Positions 11,737 to 21,762 of a stretch of DNA of 48,901 nucleotides are shown here, one piece after another. The DNA comes from Segetibacter koreensis (lineage in GTDB: Bacteria; Bacteroidota; Bacteroidia; Chitinophagales; Chitinophagaceae): NCBI GenBank assembly GCA_044463445.1, contig JBIQMJ010000001.1, positions 1 through 48,901 on the forward strand. The letters run 5' to 3'. The first letter of the stretch is position 1. Every line of letters starts with the position of its first letter. The translations under genes and the position numbers were made by a program. The notes beneath the pieces were generated by a model, which was given only the letters and a program-made list of their open reading frames with translations, searched no databases and was not told the origin of the DNA.

Positions 11737-12672
11737 ATGAAATCACAAAAGAAAAAAAGTTCACTGGTTATTCTTTTTTTTCCCGCAATGGTTGCACTAT
11801 TGCTTTACGGAGCGTCTTGCGTTTCAACAAGAAATCATTCCGGAAAAAACTTATTTATATCGTCAGAATTCACCCTTCCAAACAGTTTCACTAATGGCGT
11901 GGAAGGGCCTGCAGTAGATAGATCCGGCAATGTGTATGCGGTGAATTTTTCCAGGCAAGGCACTATTGGAATAATTACGCCACCCGGCGAACCCTTCCTT
12001 TTTGTAGAACTTCCTGACAGCAGTATTGGAAATGGAATCCGGTTTGACAGCCACGGTAACATGTTAATTGCAGACTATAAAATGCACAACGTTCTTAAGG
12101 TGGATATGAAAACAAAAAATATCAGTGTGTATGCGCATGAATCAAGGATGACGCAACCTAATGATCTCGCAATTGACAGCAAAGACAGGGTTTATGCCAG
12201 CGATCCAAATTTTAAAGCACAAACAGGCCGTGTGTGGAGGATTGACACGGATGGTCATGTTATCTTATTGGATAGTTTGCCAGCCGCAGCAAATGGGATA
12301 GAAGTTAGCCCGGACGAAAAGAAGTTATATGTAGGAGCCGGAAGAGATGTTTTTTCTTATGATTTATCAGCAAACGGAGAATTAAGCTATAAAAAATTAC
12401 TGATTGAATTTCCTGATTTTGGTACTGATGGCATGCGTTGCGATGCAAATGGAAACTTATATGTGGCACGTTTTGGAAAAGGGGTGATTGCCAAAGTTTC
12501 TCCTACCGGCAAACTATTACGGGAAATTGAATTAACCGGCAAAAGGCCCACCAATGTAGCATTTGGAGGGAAGGATGGATGCACGGTGTACGTAACATTA
12601 ATGGACAGGGGAAACCTGGAAAGTTTTCGTGTAGGCGTACCCGGTAGAGAGTGGAAAATGAAAAAACTGTGA
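11737..12672 (+). CDS. SMP-30/gluconolactonase/LRE family lipoprotein
   Basis: EGPAVD, GNG, QPND, ANGI, DGMRCD and PTNVAFGG propeller motifs; start moved to ATG 11737, giving MKSQKKK + hydrophobic stretch + GAS-C lipobox. Confidence 0.88.
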   Translation: MKSQKKKSSLVILFFPAMVALLLYGASCVSTRNHSGKNLFISSEFTLPNSFTNGVEGPAVDRSGNVYAVNFSRQGTIGIITPPGEPFLFVELPDSSIGNGIRFDSHGNMLIADYKMHNVLKVDMKTKNISVYAHESRMTQPNDLAIDSKDRVYASDPNFKAQTGRVWRIDTDGHVILLDSLPAAANGIEVSPDEKKLYVGAGRDVFSYDLSANGELSYKKLLIEFPDFGTDGMRCDANGNLYVARFGKGVIAKVSPTGKLLREIELTGKRPTNVAFGGKDGCTVYVTLMDRGNLESFRVGVPGREWKMKKL

Positions 12673-12709
12673 TGAAAAATTTATTATCTAAGTAATAAAA
12701 TAAATAGAA

Positions 12710-13945
12710 ATGAAACGCAGAGATCTTATTAAAGGAATAACCCTTCTTCCAATAGGAGGAGGTTTTATAGGAAGCGTTCTTCCCGGTGAAATAATTGCAG
12801 GCGCCTCAACAAAGCCAGGTAACAAGCGGAACCTGGTGAAAGAATTGGGCATTCGAACTTTTATAAATGCTGCCGGAACATATACTACTATGAGCGCTTC
12901 ACTGATGCACGAGGAAGTAATGGACGCGATCAGTCAAAGCTCCAAAGAATTTTGTATGCTGAATGAAGTGCAGGATAAAGTGGGAGAAAAGATTGCCCAA
13001 ATGGTACATGCAGAAGGGGCAATGGTTACAGCGGGTGCTTTTTCTGCCTTAACCCTGGGGATGGCTGGAATCCTGACAGGCACAGACCCAGAAAAGATAA
13101 AAAGATTACCGCATCGCTTGCAGGAAGCCGGCATGAAATCAGAAGTATTATTGCAGAAAGGCCATTTTGATGGCTACGAACAAGCGCTGCATAACACAGG
13201 TGTGACTCTGATCCCGGTAGAAACAGCAGAGGATGTGGAAAGATCTGTCAATGAAAAAACTGCTTCAATGCATTTTCTAAATTGCAATGCACAGGAAGGA
13301 AAAATTATGCACGAAGAATGGTTGCAATTAGCCAACAAACACCATCTTCCGGCTACCATTGATATTGCAGCAGATGTGCCGCCGGTGTCCAATTTATGGA
13401 AGTACAATGATATGGGTTTTAGTTTCGTTGCGCTCTCCGGAGGAAAAGCCATACGTGGCCCGCAAAGCACAGGAATACTAATGGGCAAAAAAGATATCAT
13501 TGCCGGGGCGCTGCTAAATAATTCTCCCAACGGAGTCACCATTGGCCGCGGAATGAAGGTGAATAAAGAAGAAATTTTGGGGATGTATGCCGCATTGGAT
13601 AAATATATTAACCAGGACCATGATAAAGAATGGAAAATGTGGGAAGATAATATCGGGTTTATCAACGATGCTGTCAAAAAAATTAACGGTATTACCACAG
13701 AAATAACTGTTCCACCCATTGCCAATCATACGCCGAAGCTGACGATCAGTTGGGATAAAAATATTATTAAAACCACCCGGAAAGATTTAGGAGAAAAGTT
13801 GCGAAACGGAGATCCTTCTATAGAAGTGATCTCATGGGGAGAGCCGGATAATAGTATCAGTCTTACAGTATTTATGTTGAAAAAAGGAGAGCATAAGATA
13901 GTGGCCAAAAGGATTCAGGAAGAATTTTTAAAGGCTTCAGTATAG
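12710..13945 (+). CDS. SelA-like/DgaE-like PLP-dependent enzyme with Tat signal (paralogue 1)
   Basis: INAAGTYT, DIAAD, PLP-lysine motif SGGKAIRGPQSTG, IGRGMKVNKEEI; N-terminus MKRRDLIKG. Confidence 0.88.
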   Translation: MKRRDLIKGITLLPIGGGFIGSVLPGEIIAGASTKPGNKRNLVKELGIRTFINAAGTYTTMSASLMHEEVMDAISQSSKEFCMLNEVQDKVGEKIAQMVHAEGAMVTAGAFSALTLGMAGILTGTDPEKIKRLPHRLQEAGMKSEVLLQKGHFDGYEQALHNTGVTLIPVETAEDVERSVNEKTASMHFLNCNAQEGKIMHEEWLQLANKHHLPATIDIAADVPPVSNLWKYNDMGFSFVALSGGKAIRGPQSTGILMGKKDIIAGALLNNSPNGVTIGRGMKVNKEEILGMYAALDKYINQDHDKEWKMWEDNIGFINDAVKKINGITTEITVPPIANHTPKLTISWDKNIIKTTRKDLGEKLRNGDPSIEVISWGEPDNSISLTVFMLKKGEHKIVAKRIQEEFLKASV

Positions 13946-14025
13946 TAAACAAAGTTTTTTCGGTTCTTTTTAATTGGTAATAAAAATTGATTCTGTCAGC
14001 TCATTTTATTGTAAACACACTTTTT

Positions 14026-15756
14026 ATGAGATTACGTGGCTTGCACTTTCTTCTTTACTGCTTATTGACCATAAGCCTCATACAATGCAGAAGGCATGGC
14101 CTTCCCCCAGGCGATACCAACAACGGCGGCCTTATATTACCTGGTGGGTTCGAAGCGGTAGTAGTGACAGACAGTATAAAAGGCGCTGCAAGGCACATTG
14201 CTGTTGGGGATAACGGTGATGTGTATGTGAAATTAAGGTTTCCCTATTCAGAAAGGGGAAATGCAGTTTTGAGAGATTTGAACAACGATGGCAAGGCCGA
14301 TACAATTGCGTACTTCGGCAATTATCCTGATAAAAGTGGCGGTTATGGTACAGAAATGAGAATTCACAACGGTTATTTATGGTTCAGCTCTGTAACACAG
14401 GTTTACCGGCAAAAATTAACGACCGGCAAATTGGTTCCCGATAGTAAAATAGAACTGATGTTGACAGATACACAACCTCCGCGCCAGCATGATACCAAAC
14501 CAATCGCTTTTGACGATAAAGGAAATATGTATATTCCATTTGGAGCGCCATCCGATTGTTGCCAGTTTGAAGACCGGACTCCTTTTTCGCCCGGCATGGA
14601 TCCTTGCCCTATTCTCGAACTAAGAGGGGGTATTTGGAAATTCGATGCCAACAAGCCAAATCAATTTCAAAAAGATGGAAAAAAATTTGCCACAGGGCTC
14701 CGAAGTATTGTAGCCCTTGAATGGAATGATAAAACCAATAATTTATACACCATTATGCACGGGCGGGATTACTTGCATTCAACCTGGCCTGAATATTTTT
14801 CCGAATGGGAAGGGGCGGTGCTTCCTTCGGAAGAATTCCTGTTATTAAAAGATGGATCTGATGCAGGCTGGCCTTATTATTATTATGACCACATAAAAGG
14901 AAAATTATTTCTCAATCCCGAATACGGAGGTGATGGAAAGAAGGAAGGAAAAGGTTCTGAATATACACAGCCAATTGTAGGTTTCCCCGGCCATTTTGCG
15001 CCTAATGATTTATTGTTTTATCGCGGCAGTCAGTTTCCTGAACATTATAAAGATGGCGCTTTCATTGCCTTTCACGGATCTACCAGCAGCGCGCCTTATC
15101 CGCAATCCGGTTACTTCGTTTGTTTTGTTCCATTTAAAAATGGCCAACCTTCCGGCCCCTGGGAAGTTTTTGCCAACGGGTTTGCAGGAGTAGATACTGT
15201 CGTGAATACCAGTGATGCCATGTACAGACCCATGGGTTTGGCAATAGGGCCTGACGGTTCGTTATACATTTCCGATTCAGAAAAAGGTAAGATATGGCGT
15301 GTGATGTATAAAGGAAATAAAGCTAAATTCGGAGAGGCGCAATTAGCCGAAATGGCAACAATAAAAAAGAAGGCAACCAATATTAAAATACCCGATGAAA
15401 TCGCAGATAATCTTGATAAAGGAAATGTAAATGCAGGTGGGAGATTATACAATACCTATTGCGGGGTTTGCCACCAACGGGACGGAATGGGCAATGACCG
15501 TTTTCCCCCTTTAAGTGGATCTGAATGGGTCACAGGCAATAAAATGGTTCCAATTAGTATCATACTGAATGGGCTTGAAGGCGAATTGCACGTAAAAGGA
15601 AAAATGTATAATAATAAAATGCCGCGGCTTCATCTTTTGTCAGACGGAACTATAGCGGAAATAGTAACGTATATCCGACAGAATTTTAATAATAATGCAA
15701 GTGCTGTTTCTACTGAAGATGTTTTAAAAACACGGAAGGAATTGAGTAGTAAATAA
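14026..15756 (+). CDS. sorbosone/aldose dehydrogenase-type (PQQ-dependent family) beta-propeller fused to C-terminal cytochrome c, lipoprotein
   Basis: LILPGGFEA, FATGLRSIVA, GWPY, AFHGS, RPMGLAIGPDGSLYISD; CGVCH heme motif with distal KMP; LIQ-C lipobox using ATG 14026. Confidence 0.85.
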   Translation: MRLRGLHFLLYCLLTISLIQCRRHGLPPGDTNNGGLILPGGFEAVVVTDSIKGAARHIAVGDNGDVYVKLRFPYSERGNAVLRDLNNDGKADTIAYFGNYPDKSGGYGTEMRIHNGYLWFSSVTQVYRQKLTTGKLVPDSKIELMLTDTQPPRQHDTKPIAFDDKGNMYIPFGAPSDCCQFEDRTPFSPGMDPCPILELRGGIWKFDANKPNQFQKDGKKFATGLRSIVALEWNDKTNNLYTIMHGRDYLHSTWPEYFSEWEGAVLPSEEFLLLKDGSDAGWPYYYYDHIKGKLFLNPEYGGDGKKEGKGSEYTQPIVGFPGHFAPNDLLFYRGSQFPEHYKDGAFIAFHGSTSSAPYPQSGYFVCFVPFKNGQPSGPWEVFANGFAGVDTVVNTSDAMYRPMGLAIGPDGSLYISDSEKGKIWRVMYKGNKAKFGEAQLAEMATIKKKATNIKIPDEIADNLDKGNVNAGGRLYNTYCGVCHQRDGMGNDRFPPLSGSEWVTGNKMVPISIILNGLEGELHVKGKMYNNKMPRLHLLSDGTIAEIVTYIRQNFNNNASAVSTEDVLKTRKELSSK

Positions 15757-15801
15757 GATAGAGGATATTAGTTCTTTGAAAGTAAAGAAAGAAATAAAAA
15801 A

Positions 15802-16920
15802 ATGGGAATGGTAAAAAATTTGTCTGCAATTTTTCTTGTAATCGTTTCATTGTTTTACGGAGCAGTTTACGCGCAAGGCACCGATTTTGATTATAACAGG
15901 CTTTTGCAAATTCCTTTGCAGTATACAGTTTTGAAAACAACCGAAAAGATGGTTATTGATGGAAAAGATGATGAAAAGGATTGGAGCAAAGCGCCGTGGA
16001 CACCGGCATTTACAGATATCGCCACCGGCAGAAAAATTAATTCAAAGCAAGAGGCTAAATGCAAAATGCTATGGGATAAGGATTTCTTATACGTGTATGC
16101 AAAGTTTAGCGAGCCGGATTTGTGGGCCTCAATCACTAAACACGACGAGTCAGTTTTCCAGGATAATGCATTTGAAATGTTTATTGCTCCTGGTGGAAAA
16201 ACTTACGACTATTTTGAATTCCAGATAAATGCTTATGGAACTGTGTGGGATTTATTTATGCCTAAACCTTATCGCAACGGAGGAATGGGCTTAACCAATT
16301 GGGATATAAAAGGATTGCAAAAAGCGGTTTATTTAGATGGAACATTAAATAATCCTGCGGATAAAGACAAAGGCTGGAGCATAGAATTAGCCGTACCTTT
16401 CAGTTCGGTTCAGATGAATAGCGGTCATCATCCGGCAAGTGGAACCATTTGGCGTATGAATTTTTCCCGTGTACAATGGCAGCTTGATACATTAAATGGA
16501 AAATACTTTCGGCAAAAAGATAAGGCAACAGGTAAATTATTGCAGGAACATTATTCAGTATGGTCGCCGCAGGGAATCATTAATTTACATTATCCTGAAA
16601 GATGGGGATATATTCTGTTTTCAGATACGTTATCAACGAAAAGTTTTCTTTCTGCAGAAGATGAAAAATCGAAATTGTTGCTTTGGAAATATTATTACCT
16701 GCAACAGGAATTCAAAAGGAAAAATGGAAAATATGCGACTCGTTTAAAACATTTGGATAAACTTTTTACCGGTAAGGCAAGCCTGGCAAAAAGCAAATCT
16801 AAAATTAAAATGCATGCAGATGAACGGCAGTTTTTGTTAGAGGTTTTTTTGGCATCCACCAATGAAATGATGTCTTTAAATGATGAAGGCGAAGTTCATT
16901 TTGAGAAACAAATGCACTGA
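15802..16920 (+). CDS. carbohydrate-binding family 9-like (DOMON-fold) exported protein
   Basis: IDGK.DE..W..A.W, KMLWD..LY, D..EMFI, YFEFQINA.GT.WD, WSIELAVP, WRMNFSR; signal peptide VYA-Q. Confidence 0.82.
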   Translation: MGMVKNLSAIFLVIVSLFYGAVYAQGTDFDYNRLLQIPLQYTVLKTTEKMVIDGKDDEKDWSKAPWTPAFTDIATGRKINSKQEAKCKMLWDKDFLYVYAKFSEPDLWASITKHDESVFQDNAFEMFIAPGGKTYDYFEFQINAYGTVWDLFMPKPYRNGGMGLTNWDIKGLQKAVYLDGTLNNPADKDKGWSIELAVPFSSVQMNSGHHPASGTIWRMNFSRVQWQLDTLNGKYFRQKDKATGKLLQEHYSVWSPQGIINLHYPERWGYILFSDTLSTKSFLSAEDEKSKLLLWKYYYLQQEFKRKNGKYATRLKHLDKLFTGKASLAKSKSKIKMHADERQFLLEVFLASTNEMMSLNDEGEVHFEKQMH

Positions 16921-17059
16921 CAGGAAATGTACACTGAGGAGAATATTTTGTAGAGTAAATGAATAAATAACGGCGATTTTTATTTTACAGCAAACAAGCA
17001 AATAACAGTAATTCTTATTTTAAAATTCACCTTTTATAAACCCTTAAAAAAATCAATTT

Positions 17060-17524
17060 ATGCAAACAGAAAGAAGATCAGCTATTAAAAAATTATTAGC
17101 TTCCGTAACAGCTATCGCGGGATTCGGATTAGCCGCCAAAGCAAAAGCAATTACAGGCAAAGAAAAGCAAGTTGGAAATATAACGACTTCACAGGATGTG
17201 CCTTTATTCTCAGGGCATACCATACACGGCGACCTGGTTTATATTGCCGGCAAAGGGGCTCATGTTGCCCCATTTGAGATAAAAGCTCACACAGAAATTG
17301 TGCTCAAAGAGCTGGAGAAAGAATTAATCAAAGCGGGATCTTCAATGGAAAAGGTTTTGAAAGTAAGCGTATTTCTGAATGACATTGCCGATTACCAGGG
17401 AATGAATGAAGTGTACAAAGGCCGCTTTGGAAAGAAGCCACCGGTGCGTACTACCGTTGCAGTAGCAAAGGGAGGAGTGCCCGGCGATTCTTTAGTGGAA
17501 ATGGATTGTATCGCCTATCTGTGA
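17060..17524 (+). CDS. RidA/YjgF family imine deaminase with Tat signal
   Basis: LVYIAG, KVSVFL, MNEVY, PPVRTTV (catalytic Arg), LVEMDCIA; N-terminus ERRSAIKK + hydrophobic stretch + AKA. Confidence 0.9.
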   Translation: MQTERRSAIKKLLASVTAIAGFGLAAKAKAITGKEKQVGNITTSQDVPLFSGHTIHGDLVYIAGKGAHVAPFEIKAHTEIVLKELEKELIKAGSSMEKVLKVSVFLNDIADYQGMNEVYKGRFGKKPPVRTTVAVAKGGVPGDSLVEMDCIAYL

Positions 17525-17674
17525 TCGGGTATAAAATATAGATTTCTTTATTTTATCAGAGGTCTGAACGGATTATTTTGTTGGTGTCAGAATTAAAAGA
17601 GAATTGATCAAAGGATTATAAAAATTAAATCTTTGATTGCTGAATTAAATTTTTAACCCCGATAAATTTAAAAC

Positions 17675-18901
17675 ATGAAACGTAGAGATGTAATAAAAGG
17701 GCTTAGTTTATTGCCCCTGTCCGGCGGAGTAATAGGAGGGGCGCTCTCTTCCGAATCCGTTTTTGCTGCACAAAAAGAAAAAGGAGCAAAGCGTGATTTG
17801 TTTGAGGAATTAGGAGTTACCCGCGTCATCAATGCAGGCGTAACGATGACTTTTCTGTCCGGTTCGCTGATGATGCCGGAGGTAATGGATGCCATCAATT
17901 CAACAAGCCATGACTTTGCCAATATGTATGAGCTTCAGGATAAAGTAGGAGCAAAAATGGCAGAGATGCTGCAATGTGAAGCTGCCATGGTAACTTCCGG
18001 AGCTGCGTGTGCATTGTTGTTGGGAACCGCTGCCGCAATCACCGGCAAAGATTCGGAAAAAATAAAGTTAATTCCTAACCTGCCGGGACCGCGGCCCGAA
18101 GTGATCATGCAAAAGAGTCATCGTTACCTGTTTGATCAGGCCATTACCACTACCGGAGCAAAAATTATAGAGATAGAAGGCGCCGATGAAATGGATAAAG
18201 CTTTTAACAGCAATACAGTGCTCGCGCTTTTCTTTAATGCAGCAGAGAAATCAAGTGTTACCCGCGAAGACTTTGTTGCAATTTGCAAAAAGCATAATAT
18301 TCCCTCTTTCATTGATGCGGCGGCTGACGTACCGCCGGTAGAGAACCTGTTTGTGTTTCAAAAAATAGGGTTCGACCTCGTCACCTTTTCCGGTGGCAAA
18401 ATGATTCGCGGTCCGCAAAGCGCCGGGTTATTATTCGGGCGGAAAGATTTGATTGGAGCGGCCAAACTGAACCACAGTCCGTACGAAGCCCCGATCGGAA
18501 GGCCCATGAAAGTAAACAAAGAAGAGATATTTGGAATGTATGCGGCATTGAAATCGTATCTTGAACGCGACCATAAAAAAGAATGGAACGACTGGCTAAA
18601 TCGTATAGAACGAATTAGAAAAAAAGTGGAGCAAGTGCAAAGTGTAAAAGGAGAAACACATATAGAACCCGGGCCTGCCAATGCTTTTCCTTCACTTTAT
18701 CTTACCTGGGACCAGGAAACAGTAAAGATGACTGCAAATGATGCACAATCGGCACTTCAGAAGGGTAACCCCAGTATTGTAACCAACGTAGCCAACAAAG
18801 ATGGCAACAAAGTGTTGAGTGTGGGTGTAGTGTTGTTGAGGCCCGACCAGGTCGATATCGTAGCCCGGCGTGTGAAAGAAATTCTGGAACACGCTATTTA
18901 A
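17675..18901 (+). CDS. SelA-like/DgaE-like PLP-dependent enzyme with Tat signal (paralogue 2)
   Basis: VINAG, VTSGAA, DAAAD, FSGGKMIRGPQSAG, IGRPMKVNKEEI; N-terminus MKRRDVIKG. Confidence 0.88.
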   Translation: MKRRDVIKGLSLLPLSGGVIGGALSSESVFAAQKEKGAKRDLFEELGVTRVINAGVTMTFLSGSLMMPEVMDAINSTSHDFANMYELQDKVGAKMAEMLQCEAAMVTSGAACALLLGTAAAITGKDSEKIKLIPNLPGPRPEVIMQKSHRYLFDQAITTTGAKIIEIEGADEMDKAFNSNTVLALFFNAAEKSSVTREDFVAICKKHNIPSFIDAAADVPPVENLFVFQKIGFDLVTFSGGKMIRGPQSAGLLFGRKDLIGAAKLNHSPYEAPIGRPMKVNKEEIFGMYAALKSYLERDHKKEWNDWLNRIERIRKKVEQVQSVKGETHIEPGPANAFPSLYLTWDQETVKMTANDAQSALQKGNPSIVTNVANKDGNKVLSVGVVLLRPDQVDIVARRVKEILEHAI

Positions 18902-18950
18902 TATCTTACTGAAAGAAATAATATCTTAATAGTAAAACAAAAATCAATCA

Positions 18951-20750
18951 ATGAAAAAATCATTACTGCTTCTAATTACATTAACCGCCTTTTCTTTTAA
19001 TTCTTCTTTTTCCCAAAACTATAGTATTGTCATTAAAGGAGGCCATGTGATTGACCCAAAAAATAATATTGACGAAGTAATGGATGTGGCTATTGACAGC
19101 GGAAAAATAAAATTGGTGGCAAAAAATATCAGCGCTGCCAATGCATCGCAGGTTGTCAATGCCGAAGGAATGTATGTTACACCCGGATTAATAGACATTC
19201 ATACCCACGATTTTTGGGGCACAGAACCCAACCATCAATATGAAAATGGAAACCTGGCCATACAACCCGATGGATTTACATTTCGCAATGGCGTAACTAC
19301 TATTGTAGATGCCGGAAGTTCCGGCTGGCGCACCTTTCCCACTTTTAAAGCACAGACCATCGATGTATCGCAAACGAGAGTTCTTGCTTTTCTAAATATC
19401 GTAGGCGAAGGCATGCGGGGCGGTTATGAACAAAACGAAAATGACATGGATCCGAAGATGTCGGCACTGGTTGCGAAACAATATAAAAATATAATTGTTG
19501 GATTTAAACTGGCCCACTATGAAGGTTATGACTGGACACCAACCGACCGTGCCGTTTTAGCCGGAAACCTGGCGGGTGGCCTTCCGGTAATGGTGGATTT
19601 CGGCGGAAGTAAACCGCCTCTTTCCCTGGAAGAATTATTTTTAAATCATCTGCGCCCGGGCGATATTTTCACCCACTGCTTTGCACAATTAAGCAGCAGG
19701 GAATTTATTGTAGATACCGCCACCAATAAAGTAAAACCTTTCGTGTGGGAAGCCCACAAAAAGGGAATTATTTTCGATGTAGGCTATGGCGGAATCAGCT
19801 TTGCCTATTCGCAGGCCATCCCCGCGATCAAAGAAGGTTTTTATCCCAATTCCATCAGCACTGACCTGCATGTAGGCAGTATGAATGCCGCCATGAAGGG
19901 AATGCTTACTACCATGTCAAAATTCCTTGCAATGGGAATTGATTTGAAAACGGTTATTACTGAGAGTACCTGGAATCCGGCCAAAGAAATCAACCACGAA
20001 GAATTGGGAAACTTATCAGCAGGCGCAGGTGCAGACGTGGCCATACTTAGTATGAGAGAAGGCAAGTTCGGCCTCTTTGATTATACCGGCTATAAACAGG
20101 AAACCGATAAAAAGCTCGAGTGCCAAATGACGATCCGCGATGGCAGAATTGTTTATGACCTGAATGGAATTGCCAACCCCATAATTGCACCGCATCATCC
20201 TTTGCCTGTTGTGGCGAATGCCACCAATAATTTTTCGGAATGGTTTAAAACAATTCCTTCAAAAAATGGCTTACCACTTACGCCCAGCAAAAGCATTAAT
20301 GAAGAGGAATTCTTCAGGCAATATCGTAAAAATAACACCTGGTGGGAGGAAGCTTTTACCTTCTTGAAAACAATGGATTTGGCCCAGCTCAAGCCCGGCG
20401 TGTATGTGATTGATTCAGGAAATGTAATAGCAACCGTTTCGCAAGGCCCGACTAAAAATAAAGAAGAGGTGCAGTGGGAGGCTCATCGCAATTTTAATGA
20501 TATTCAATACATCATAAAAGGAAAAGCCCAAATGGGTGTAGCACCTAGCGCTGACATCAGGGCTGTGCTCACCCATCCCTACACGAATGCAAAAGATAAC
20601 ATGAATTTTACCAATGATGGCGGCGAATATTTTGAGGCAGATCCATCCACGTTCTTTATTTTTTCACCGCAGGAAATGCACAGGCCTGCTATCAAAGTTC
20701 CGGGAAGTGATAATGTGAAAAAAATAGTGATCAAGGTAAGGGTTCCATAG
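18951..20750 (+). CDS. exported metallo-amidohydrolase/deacetylase (EF_0837-like) fused to C-terminal YhcH/YjgK/YiaL domain
   Basis: PGLIDIHTH, GVTTIVDAGSSG, GFK, GDIFTHC, ISTDLH; C-terminal WEAHRNFNDIQY and FFIFSPQEMHRP...KKIVIKV; Sec signal SFS-Q. Confidence 0.85.
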   Translation: MKKSLLLLITLTAFSFNSSFSQNYSIVIKGGHVIDPKNNIDEVMDVAIDSGKIKLVAKNISAANASQVVNAEGMYVTPGLIDIHTHDFWGTEPNHQYENGNLAIQPDGFTFRNGVTTIVDAGSSGWRTFPTFKAQTIDVSQTRVLAFLNIVGEGMRGGYEQNENDMDPKMSALVAKQYKNIIVGFKLAHYEGYDWTPTDRAVLAGNLAGGLPVMVDFGGSKPPLSLEELFLNHLRPGDIFTHCFAQLSSREFIVDTATNKVKPFVWEAHKKGIIFDVGYGGISFAYSQAIPAIKEGFYPNSISTDLHVGSMNAAMKGMLTTMSKFLAMGIDLKTVITESTWNPAKEINHEELGNLSAGAGADVAILSMREGKFGLFDYTGYKQETDKKLECQMTIRDGRIVYDLNGIANPIIAPHHPLPVVANATNNFSEWFKTIPSKNGLPLTPSKSINEEEFFRQYRKNNTWWEEAFTFLKTMDLAQLKPGVYVIDSGNVIATVSQGPTKNKEEVQWEAHRNFNDIQYIIKGKAQMGVAPSADIRAVLTHPYTNAKDNMNFTNDGGEYFEADPSTFFIFSPQEMHRPAIKVPGSDNVKKIVIKVRVP

Positions 20751-20832
20751 AATTTTAAGACAATGATTTGCAGCAAAAACCTGAATAAAAATCTTTGGTA
20801 TTTTTTTGTTTCCTGTCAAATTAATTATAACC

Positions 20833-21762
20833 ATGCAATTTTATAAAACCATTATCGGGCTGCTTTTATCATGCGTTTTTTCTTTCGTTGGTGCCCGTGC
20901 CCAAACCATTTCGAGAGATGAAATGATTTTTCTTACTTCCCAGTGGAAAGGCGAACGATTTGCCGATGGCCGTCCCAAGGTTCCGGATGATCTGCTAGTG
21001 AGGGCGCGAAATATTGGTATTGATGATGCCTGGACCGTGTTGAAAAACTTAGGATACACCAATCAGTTTGAAGGCGGCTGGAAAATGGTAAATGATAGTA
21101 TTCCTGTTATTGGCCGGGCAGTTACGGCCATGTTTCTTCCTTCCCGCCCTGATGTAGAAAAAAATATTAAAGAGCGCGGTATAAAGGAAGGCCGTAAAGG
21201 CAATACCAATTCATGGCCGATTGATATACTTATCAAAGGGGACGTGTATGTGGCAGACGGCTTTGGAAAAATTGCAGGGGGCACACTCATTGGAAGTACA
21301 CTTGGAAATTCCATTTACAGCAAATCCGGCAATGGCGTAATTTTTAACGGTTCAGCCCGCGACCTGGAAGGCCTGTCCGAAATAAAAGGATTTAATGCTT
21401 TTGTGCGCGATTTTCATCCATCCTTTTTGGAAAATATGGTGTTGATGGGACTTAATACCCCAATTTGTATCGGGCAGGCCATCGTCTTGCCCGGTGACCT
21501 GGTGATTGCAGACCGGGAAGGAGTTCTTTTTATCCCCGCTCAGTTGGCTGACCTGGTTATCAGCACTTCAGAATTTGTGGTTTTAAAAGATAAATTTGGT
21601 TTTGAAATGGTCAAAACCAATAAATATTCAACCGGCCAGATCGATAGCCAATGGACAGAGGATATCAAAGCAGATTTCCTAAAATGGCTGGGCCAGCATC
21701 CTGAATTAGGAAAAATGACCAAAGAAAAACTGGATGAAATTATGAGTAAAAGAACGTGGTAG
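20833..21762 (+). CDS. RraA-like/HMG-CHA aldolase family exported protein
   Basis: GRAVTA, GDVYVAD, IGSTLG, GSARD, PGDLVIADREGVLFIP; signal peptide ARA-Q using ATG 20833. Confidence 0.85.
   Translation: MQFYKTIIGLLLSCVFSFVGARAQTISRDEMIFLTSQWKGERFADGRPKVPDDLLVRARNIGIDDAWTVLKNLGYTNQFEGGWKMVNDSIPVIGRAVTAMFLPSRPDVEKNIKERGIKEGRKGNTNSWPIDILIKGDVYVADGFGKIAGGTLIGSTLGNSIYSKSGNGVIFNGSARDLEGLSEIKGFNAFVRDFHPSFLENMVLMGLNTPICIGQAIVLPGDLVIADREGVLFIPAQLADLVISTSEFVVLKDKFGFEMVKTNKYSTGQIDSQWTEDIKADFLKWLGQHPELGKMTKEKLDEIMSKRTW

Follow-up and report, generated by a model that had tools for sequence, protein, structure and literature searches.

The window considered here, i.e., the whole stretch of 48,901 nucleotides (contig C1 of a 94% complete genome assigned to the Chitinophagaceae), contains eight co-directional open reading frames (ORFs) on the + strand, spanning positions 11737-21762, which belong to a real, conserved and uncharacterised system. 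Its chemistry is that of known pathways, and it is set apart by its compartment and by the enzyme families it employs. The best reading is that these genes encode a periplasmic version, of the type organised in polysaccharide utilisation loci (PULs), of the cytoplasmic Ong and Dga pathways. On balance it is likely that the substrate would be oxidised, its lactone opened and its acyl group removed in the periplasm, where beta-elimination and hydrolysis with the aid of RidA would follow, and that a keto-deoxy acid would then be imported; every catalytic step is assigned from family, fold and gene context. The features of the cluster are as follows:

11737..12672, + strand: SMP-30/gluconolactonase-family lipoprotein, predicted aldonolactonase (PF08450 E=3e-36; lipobox)
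12710..13945, + strand: SelA/DgaE-like pyridoxal 5'-phosphate (PLP) enzyme, paralog A, twin-arginine signal (TIGR01437 172 bits, cut-off 385)
14026..15756, + strand: AA12-type six-bladed pyrroloquinoline quinone (PQQ) dehydrogenase fused to c-type cytochrome, lipoprotein (model, Foldseek, CxxCH)
15802..16920, + strand: CBM9-like protein, Sec signal, accessory (PF06452 E=3e-8)
17060..17524, + strand: RidA-family imine/enamine deaminase, twin-arginine signal (PF01042; conserved Arg130, Glu147)
17675..18901, + strand: SelA/DgaE-like PLP enzyme, paralog B, twin-arginine signal (fold as DgaE 7LC0)
18951..20750, + strand: PRK09237 (COG3964-type) metallo-amidohydrolase/deacetylase with C-terminal YhcH/DUF386 domain, Sec signal (NF006689, PF04074)
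20833..21762, + strand: RraA/HMG-CHA aldolase-like protein, Sec signal, aldolase activity uncertain (PF03737)

On one side of the run lies an ABC-2 efflux operon, on the other a gene of the OmpA family, and the closest loci are those of Hanamia and Ginsengibacter. Re-reading the sequence gave the same set of export signals as the initial annotation (two lipoprotein, three twin-arginine and three Sec signals with Gln at +1), whose proposed pathway had left out two parts, namely the CBM9-like protein and the anomerase-type YhcH/DUF386 domain of the deacylase.

Predicted export of the enzymes

Export signals were called by sequence pattern on N-termini read from the DNA. Lipoboxes are found in the lactonase (LYGAS-C) and the dehydrogenase (SLIQ-C). 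Twin-arginine (RR) leaders consist of MKRR and a hydrophobic (h-) region in lyases A and B, and of MQTERR, an h-region and AKA in RidA. Sec signals with Gln at +1 occur in the CBM9-like protein (AVYA-Q), the deacylase (SSFS-Q) and RraA (GARA-Q).

These leaders recur in relatives. Across 160 related loci and the window, with proteins that were short, cut at a locus end or devoid of the anchor motif set aside, RR is present in the leaders of 198/202 lyases and 117/117 RidA proteins. The pattern M-x(0-6)-RR occurs in 47 of the 2130 genome ORFs of at least 200 amino acids (aa), a background test stricter in position than the one applied to relatives, whose counts are also inflated by kin and a few twice-fetched loci. 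Judged by this comparison, the RR leaders are not a product of chance. A hydrophobic leader was likewise found in 128/129 deacylases, 61/61 RraA, 53/53 dehydrogenases, 40/40 lactonases and 13/13 CBM9-like proteins, a test which is weak alone, as 1054/2130 genome ORFs pass it. Solved relatives begin at the catalytic domain, and the three other Rid proteins of the genome have no leader.

All 36 RR-bearing lyases fall into one 46-leaf clade (FastTree support 0.97), which also holds four members with other extensions and six signal-less ones. The tree comprised 110 full-length sequences, drawn from the best 150 of 1363 representatives (E up to 1e-30) and three annotated proteins. The clade includes Acidobacteriota proteins labelled 'selenocysteine synthase'.

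A partner that carries a c-type cytochrome has to face the periplasm. Moreover, twin-arginine translocation (Tat) of PLP-loaded enzymes has precedents in PvdN and PtaA (PMC6206403). Taken together, the eight enzymes are very probably exported, and the earlier claim to this effect is borne out, on pattern-based calls, by the conserved leaders and by the presence of tatC. It is scarcely credible that the leaders are non-functional and the enzymes cytoplasmic. The RR motifs do depart from the canonical RR-x-F-L-K (RRDVIKG, RRSAIKK), and pattern calls are what such a view could question; against it stand the near-invariance of RR in a lyase leader whose remainder drifts, the Gln that follows a small residue in 127/129 deacylases, the cytochrome c partner and the tatC gene found in the genome. 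As a separate observation, the genome encodes an unannotated 415-aa protein (G000:C178, + strand) whose MKRR leader closely resembles the lyase leaders.

The PLP lyases

The lyase model has a pLDDT of 91. The top structural match of lyase B is DgaE (7LC0; Z 37.0, rmsd 2.5 Å over 353 residues); in Foldseek, DgaE ties with Cap15 (8T7J) at TM 0.87 each, and profile scores rank DgaE (2e-49) above Cap15 (1e-43). Both lyases remain below the curated cut-offs, with 143 and 138 against 600 for NF047797 and 187 and 172 against 385 for TIGR01437. Selenocysteine synthesis was considered as a function and rejected (TIGR00474 50 bits against 268; Z 24.7 against 37.0 for DgaE).

In DgaE, the substrate phosphate was docked on Arg301, Arg332 and Arg346, His162/His163 are strictly conserved in DGL, and the H163A variant was proposed to release the enamine (PMC9529869). 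The PLP lysine is numbered 217 in that paper and 213 in the 7LC0 sequence. Lyase A retains the PLP Lys246 and Arg280 and is missing the DgaE His pair and Arg cluster; lyase B retains Lys242 and Arg276, with A190/E191, S340 and V386 at the His/Arg positions. Of 112 full-length exported lyases (130 minus 18 that were partial or without an ATG-RR start), every one has the PLP Lys and the GRxMK Arg. His162 occurs in 0/112, His163 in 0/112, Arg301 in 1/112, Arg332 in 0/112 and Arg346 in 0/112; the Arg332 column is gapped in 74 of the 112, with no Arg within two columns. A phosphotransferase system (PTS)-linked DgaE-family control from Niallia retains all five residues. This pattern is suggestive of an unphosphorylated substrate and of a need for RidA, and the loss of the phosphate-binding arginines agrees with the non-phosphorylative chemistry initially proposed.

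The tie with Cap15 opens another reading, in which the PLP enzymes would be O2-dependent decarboxylases of the Cap15/PvdN type; an amide one carbon shorter would be formed, hydrolysed by the amidohydrolase, and passed to a dehydratase and RraA. The Tat-exported PLP enzyme PvdN forms an amide by decarboxylation (PMC6206403), the top PDB match of the deacylase is labelled 'Amidase' (8JE0), and aldonate dehydratases are present in three loci. This reading is nevertheless quite improbable, as the profile comparison favours DgaE and RidA, whose substrates are free enamines and imines, accompanies the lyase in 42/47 loci. Furthermore, the richest clusters belong to Bacteroidales and Draconibacterium, some of them beside rnf, which suggests low-oxygen habitats.

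Relatives also contain a lyase paralog of about 530 aa (L025:3586-5214, L087:16023-17627 and others), whose C-terminal 125 aa or so form a tail without a Pfam match.

RidA, the deacylase and RraA

RidA shows invariant Arg130 and Glu147 in 70/70 relatives, residues which we take to correspond to the RidA catalytic Arg105 and Glu120. The deacylase exceeds its family cut-off (NF006689, 439 bits against 371) and conserves H84, H86, K186, H242 and D305, with Asp216 in place of one usual His; the natural substrate of PRK09237 was not established in the literature searched. Its C-terminal YhcH/DUF386 domain (PF04074, E=3e-32) is a fusion found in 12/100 family members. By opening the ring of 2-keto-3-deoxy acids, YhcH makes them available to an aldolase (PMC8141875).

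In RraA, Arg185-Asp186 (318-aa ORF numbering) correspond to Arg123-Asp124 of 3NOJ, which are named as HMG/CHA aldolase residues (PMC5065237), and are found in 41/41 sequences. The window protein carries Ser164 at the Asp102 position, where Asp occurs in 27/41 relatives. Presumably, Asp102 belongs to the D-x20-R-D aldolase motif, and aldolase activity of the window RraA is uncertain. An apparent split between Asp-type RraA with BASS and Ser-type RraA with major facilitator superfamily (MFS) carriers (24 against 14, among genome-locus RraA with a carrier) was rejected as evidence because it tracks phylogeny, three Ala-type proteins occur with BASS, and locus L204 has an intact RraA motif with KdgT. 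In two loci (L082:11755-13776 and L167:11632-13653), BASS is fused in frame to an RraA-like protein, with the signal-like segment of RraA retained inside; as the two are near-identical, this may be one event or a lost stop codon.

Distribution and neighbourhood in relatives

The lyase was detected in 9/400 Bacteroidota genomes, each at least 90% complete, and in 6/36 genomes of the same genus, many of them incomplete. Eighty genome loci were picked by similarity to lyase B; 47 of them are 'full', with about 10 kb on both sides, and gene families were defined by BLAST clustering. Among these 47, RidA occurs in 42, the deacylase in 43, both in 41, RraA in 32, the lactonase in 26, a PQQ dehydrogenase in 27, the CBM9-like protein in 10, an inner-membrane carrier in 29, SusC with SusD in 18, and an extracytoplasmic function (ECF) sigma factor in 17. 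The values are lower in 21 full metagenome loci (RidA with deacylase 10, carrier 10, SusC/SusD 7). Co-occurrence in other genomes, a check asked for at the outset, was thus found for the lyase, RidA and deacylase. This grouping, a Niallia cluster described below and the likeness to the Ong pathway together uphold the idea of a deacylate-then-deaminate route resembling amino-sugar-acid catabolism. The idea of a complete oxidative route stands in part: the lyase, RidA and deacylase form the core, and oxidation, lactonase and aldolase are accessory, since RidA, deacylase, RraA, AA12-type dehydrogenase and lactonase are all together in 17/47 full loci.

The commonest full layout is ECF-FecR-SusC-SusD-RidA-lyase-deacylase-RraA-BASS. 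Chondrinema litorale shares this header and four of the enzymes but lacks the carrier, and minimal loci consist of ECF-FecR-SusC-SusD-lyase-PQQ dehydrogenase (L050, L141, L155). In L204 the cluster ends with KdgT (452 bits against a cut-off of 454), which adds one locus to the 29 with a carrier, and one locus adds a seven-bladed lactonase. The best PDB match of the cluster SusD is 5J5U (E=1e-65), presumably the SusD of a Flavobacterium chitin locus.

Locus L029 shares the flanks seen in the window and holds in addition one more deacylase, a third lyase and, after RraA, an MFS gene; it is on such comparison that the window is read as a reduced copy of a fuller locus. SusC/SusD are absent from the window, the best matches in the 94% complete genome being 33% and 29%. 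The genome does encode a galactonate-type MFS protein (C196), 78-89% identical to those of relatives, and a kdgK-eda pair (C125). That the C196 gene is the exact translocated orthologue is not supported, as its identity reaches 88-89% with L026/L027/L040 and 82% with the nearest relatives, L029/L074.

Several related loci hold additional genes. Galactonate-/mannonate-dehydratase homologues with RR leaders lie inside clusters (L044:1373-2869, L056:5748-7022, L116:2991-7022), which suggests a wider exported sugar-acid catabolism. A Bacteroidales version (L087, L095, L096, L098, L100, L168, L175) combines three lyases with between three and five deacylases and with Tat DUF362 proteins that bear an FlgD-Ig-type tail; a CocE/NonD hydrolase is often present, and most of these loci adjoin rnf genes. 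PQQ dehydrogenase and RraA were not found in the stretch covered. In L059 (6389-9071), a signal-less YjgF, an OngC-like fold-III enzyme and an M19 peptidase lie between SusD/GH29 and the exported cluster.

Proposed oxidation of the substrate

The dehydrogenase model (pLDDT 85) has its best Foldseek matches in TrAA12 (6I1Q) and CcPDH (6JT5), at E~4e-19. The CxxCH and distal Met of its cytochrome are invariant; four residues, namely the catalytic His, the Arg of GLR and two PQQ His, fall directly on their TrAA12 equivalents, and the Arg273 and Arg621 equivalents are placed by motif only. The AA12-type enzyme is replaced in some loci by an unrelated PQQ dehydrogenase with eight blades, one or the other being present in 27/47. 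This alternation speaks for a functional link between oxidation and the lyase. The lactonase residues E93, N179, N223 and D268 (348-aa ORF numbering) are invariant in 32/32 relatives. Two more exported AA12-type paralogs (G000:C70 and C148; 44% and 41%) and several eight-bladed PQQ dehydrogenases are encoded elsewhere in the genome.

Proposed pathway and its alternatives

In the proposed scheme, SusC/SusD of the fuller loci would carry the substrate over the outer membrane, under ECF sigma/FecR control. The PQQ dehydrogenase-cytochrome c would oxidise C1 and deliver electrons to the respiratory chain, the lactonase would open the lactone, and the PRK09237 deacylase would remove the N-acyl group. 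The Tat-exported, PLP-loaded DgaE-like lyase would then eliminate the C3 hydroxyl of the unphosphorylated 2-amino acid. Co-export of RidA would make sense because a lyase without His163 would release the enamine, which RidA would hydrolyse to the 2-keto-3-deoxy acid and ammonia. An ACS-MFS, BASS or KdgT carrier would bring the keto acid in to KdgK/Eda. In loci with an active RraA, YhcH may instead open the ring of some of this acid, which would then be cleaved outside and yield pyruvate for import. The starting compound could also be an already oxidised acid rather than an N-acylated amino sugar.

The conversion of an amino-aldonate to a keto-deoxy-aldonate is probable, and a 2-keto-3-deoxy-aldonate is proposed as the product because of KdgT, the seven-bladed lactonase, the RR-bearing aldonate dehydratases and the role of YhcH. 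The assignment of N-acetylglucosamine (GlcNAc) or glucosamine (GlcN) as the main substrate is plausible and more tentative. Rather doubtful is a wider reading, in which the system would serve ATP-free periplasmic catabolism of amino sugars from the walls and surface glycans of microbial cells. Each stereoisomer (GlcN, galactosamine, mannosamine and L-6-deoxy forms, e.g., L-fucosamine) would be handled by its own member of the lyase and deacylase sets, which comprise as many as five paralogs each, with aldol cleavage outside the cytoplasm. The L-6-deoxy sugars are hinted at because of the AA12-type dehydrogenase and GH29-like neighbours.

Several observations weigh against the proposed scheme. 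Among 70 signal-less lyase relatives, the His-His pair is present in only 2, the Arg346 motif in 2 and Arg301 in 33, so losing the His pair and Arg346 is, on these alignments, not specific to export. Cap15, whose substrate we take to be unphosphorylated, retains the three arginines, which makes the cluster an imperfect phosphate marker, and it equals DgaE as a Foldseek match. The SusD search also matches beta-glucan binders (1e-53). Hexosaminidases and chitinases are not regular neighbours: GH18 was seen in one locus, a GH29-like gene in three and GH92 in three of the genome loci. Some lyases occur without any of the partners (e.g., L037, L043, L058, L103). The TrAA12-type nearest characterised relative of the dehydrogenase oxidises L-fucose and not D-glucose (PMC6881810), a comparison suggesting that GlcNAc is not favoured as substrate. 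In addition, no PQQ synthesis gene was found in the genome, in searches whose controls failed the cut-off (pqqC matched no control and pqqE reached it in none), so that absence of PQQ synthesis is not established. Finally, L204 pairs KdgT with an intact RraA motif, which fits both import and outside cleavage.

The last point bears on the fate of the keto acid. The initial annotation placed the whole route outside the cytoplasm, including aldol cleavage, with no sugar acid uptake and with electrons, ammonia, acetate, pyruvate and an aldehyde as its yields. This appears unlikely. The lack of a kinase, PTS, transporter and regulator holds inside the eight genes and is not supported as a property of the system, as related loci carry transporters and ECF/FecR. 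The claim of no uptake is not supported, given SusC/SusD, BASS, ACS-MFS or KdgT in related loci and the MFS gene and kdgK-eda pair of the genome itself; it rested on local absence, because L029 has an MFS gene in the slot that is empty here. A galactonate-type MFS or KdgT is clustered in many relatives, a carrier is present in 29/32 full loci with RraA, RraA is missing from 15/47, and the window RraA has Ser at the Asp102 position. Cleavage outside the cytoplasm draws support from the RraA leader (61/61), kept even behind the fused BASS carrier, from the invariant Arg-Asp with Asp102 in 27/41, from YhcH, which feeds aldolases, and from the finding of no PfkB-type kinase among the neighbours scanned. 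It is also in keeping with BASS-family members carrying small 2-keto acids (PanS match); the plant pyruvate carrier is of this family.

A different kind of substrate would be a non-sugar N-acyl D- or beta-hydroxy amino acid, e.g., from peptidoglycan or peptide natural products, with the sugar-type genes loosely attached. Its supporting evidence comprises Bacteroidales loci with the core three genes, no dehydrogenase or RraA, a CocE/NonD hydrolase and up to five deacylases. It also includes rhizobia, where the PRK09237 family, RidA and a signal-less SelA-like gene adjoin peptide-type ABC transporters. OngC, moreover, deaminates D-Ser and D-Thr too (PMC9537276). This alternative is improbable in view of the recurrent sugar-acid neighbours (two lactonase folds, two PQQ dehydrogenases, dehydratases, KdgT, YhcH, SusC/SusD) and of the PTS-linked twin from Niallia, which ends in DgaF and KdgK. 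The periplasmic amino-sugar-acid route remains the preferred reading.

Significance and novelty

Amino sugars from chitin and dead microbes form a large pool of nitrogen and carbon in soil, and the known routes for their catabolism are, to our knowledge, cytoplasmic. If the proposal is correct, a periplasmic route would free ammonia as well as acetate, gain electrons at no cost in ATP or phosphoenolpyruvate, and keep the toxic enamine outside the cytoplasm. It would also provide a function for a large family labelled 'selenocysteine synthase', for PRK09237 amidohydrolases and for exported RidA. Should the wider reading hold, the system, shared by soil Bacteroidota and Acidobacteriota, would provide the first case of an Entner-Doudoroff-like chain in which a lyase/RidA pair is exported by Tat. 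Cultured carriers that are not pathogens (Mucilaginibacter, Hanamia caeni, Ginsengibacter hankyongi and Chondrinema litorale) make the system directly testable.

In the literature searched, most subscription papers lying outside its coverage, neither an exported DgaE-like lyase nor an exported RidA nor this Bacteroidota locus was found described, and glucosaminate is not mentioned in the Bacteroidetes papers among the matches listed. The single paper that brings together RidA, the twin-arginine route, the periplasm and pyridoxal deals with nicotine. The novelty suggested at the outset is therefore partial: the chemistry is known from the cytoplasmic Ong and Dga pathways, and the exported layout was found in no paper searched.

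Context of the window

Sequencing runs matching the window are for the most part soil metagenomes. Three RNA-labelled soil runs gave only short contigs (depth 2-4) at scattered places in the cluster and on both sides of it, and are uninformative on transcription or induction. A promoter and terminator scan stayed at chance (33 against 31.8 and 12 against 12.5) with sigma-70 patterns, which are unfit for Bacteroidota, and a search of E. coli DNA gave no genuine match. The remainder of the window (21995-48901) holds ordinary housekeeping genes: an OmpA-family lipoprotein, Mla-type ABC, MsrB, adenylate kinase, PaaZ-like, SurA-like, NadA, RecA, KdsD-like and RecQ, some of these names being derived from Pfam domains.

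Comparison with known systems

The Ong pathway of Pseudoalteromonas prydzensis deacetylates unphosphorylated GlcNAc1A and then deaminates it with a PLP enzyme to 2-keto-3-deoxygluconate and ammonia, with a requirement for RidA; import is TonB-dependent, KdgK acts downstream, and OngB, OngC, OngD and KdgK are cytoplasmic after inner-membrane import (PMC9537276). The likeness lies in a deacylase, a PLP deaminase and RidA being encoded together, as in 41/47 full loci here. The enzyme families differ: OngB is of the D-aminoacylase type (its only match covers residues 21-88, E=6e-6) and OngC is of fold type III, whereas the present system uses PRK09237 and a SelA-like enzyme of fold type I. Orthologues of OngB and OngC are not found in the eight genes; an OngC-like gene was seen once beside a related cluster (L059). 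Additionally, the Ong enzymes are cytoplasmic and follow oxidation by a lytic polysaccharide monooxygenase (PMC9537276), in contrast to the export signals and linked PQQ dehydrogenase seen here.

The Dga pathway of Salmonella shares the lyase fold (7LC0/7LCE), the PLP lysine and the GRxMK arginine. It is cytoplasmic, fed by the PTS DgaABCD, uses a 6-phosphate substrate and has the DgaF aldolase as partner (PMC9529869). The window lyases, unlike DgaE, score 138-187 bits, have no His162, His163 or three-arginine cluster, and possess Tat signals and RidA partners. A glucosaminate route via a DgaE homologue has been predicted in haloarchaea (PMC12343721).

An unannotated plasmid of Niallia taxi (L234:4266-11903) encodes, one after the other, PTS IIC, MupG, a regulator, a PRK09237 deacylase, a DgaE-family lyase that exceeds its cut-off, DgaF and a KdgK-like kinase. 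This Firmicute cluster, in which the same deacylase family directly precedes a DgaE-family lyase as in the pairing here, looks like a phosphorylative counterpart, whose substrate may be an N-acyl-amino-aldonate phosphate.

Cap15 (8T7J) has the SelA-like fold at an equal TM-score. Together with PvdN and PtaA, it is presumably a biosynthetic tailoring enzyme. PvdN and PtaA are PLP enzymes exported folded by Tat, and the available part of PMC6206403 reports no RidA, deacylase or SusC/SusD context for them. The AA12 enzymes TrAA12 and CcPDH share the six-bladed propeller, the catalytic His and several PQQ-binding residues with the dehydrogenase (PMC6881810, PMC6881789). They are fungal, 18% identical, and carry a cytochrome b or none, whereas the present protein is a bacterial lipoprotein with a C-terminal cytochrome c and Ser at Asn431.

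Polysaccharide utilisation loci of Bacteroidota have an ECF-FecR-SusC-SusD header and an inner-membrane carrier. The SusC/SusD pair is absent from the window and present in 18/47 related full loci, and header and carrier are common to many relatives. The difference lies in the cargo: glycoside hydrolases are few, and what is exported consists of central-type catabolic enzymes.

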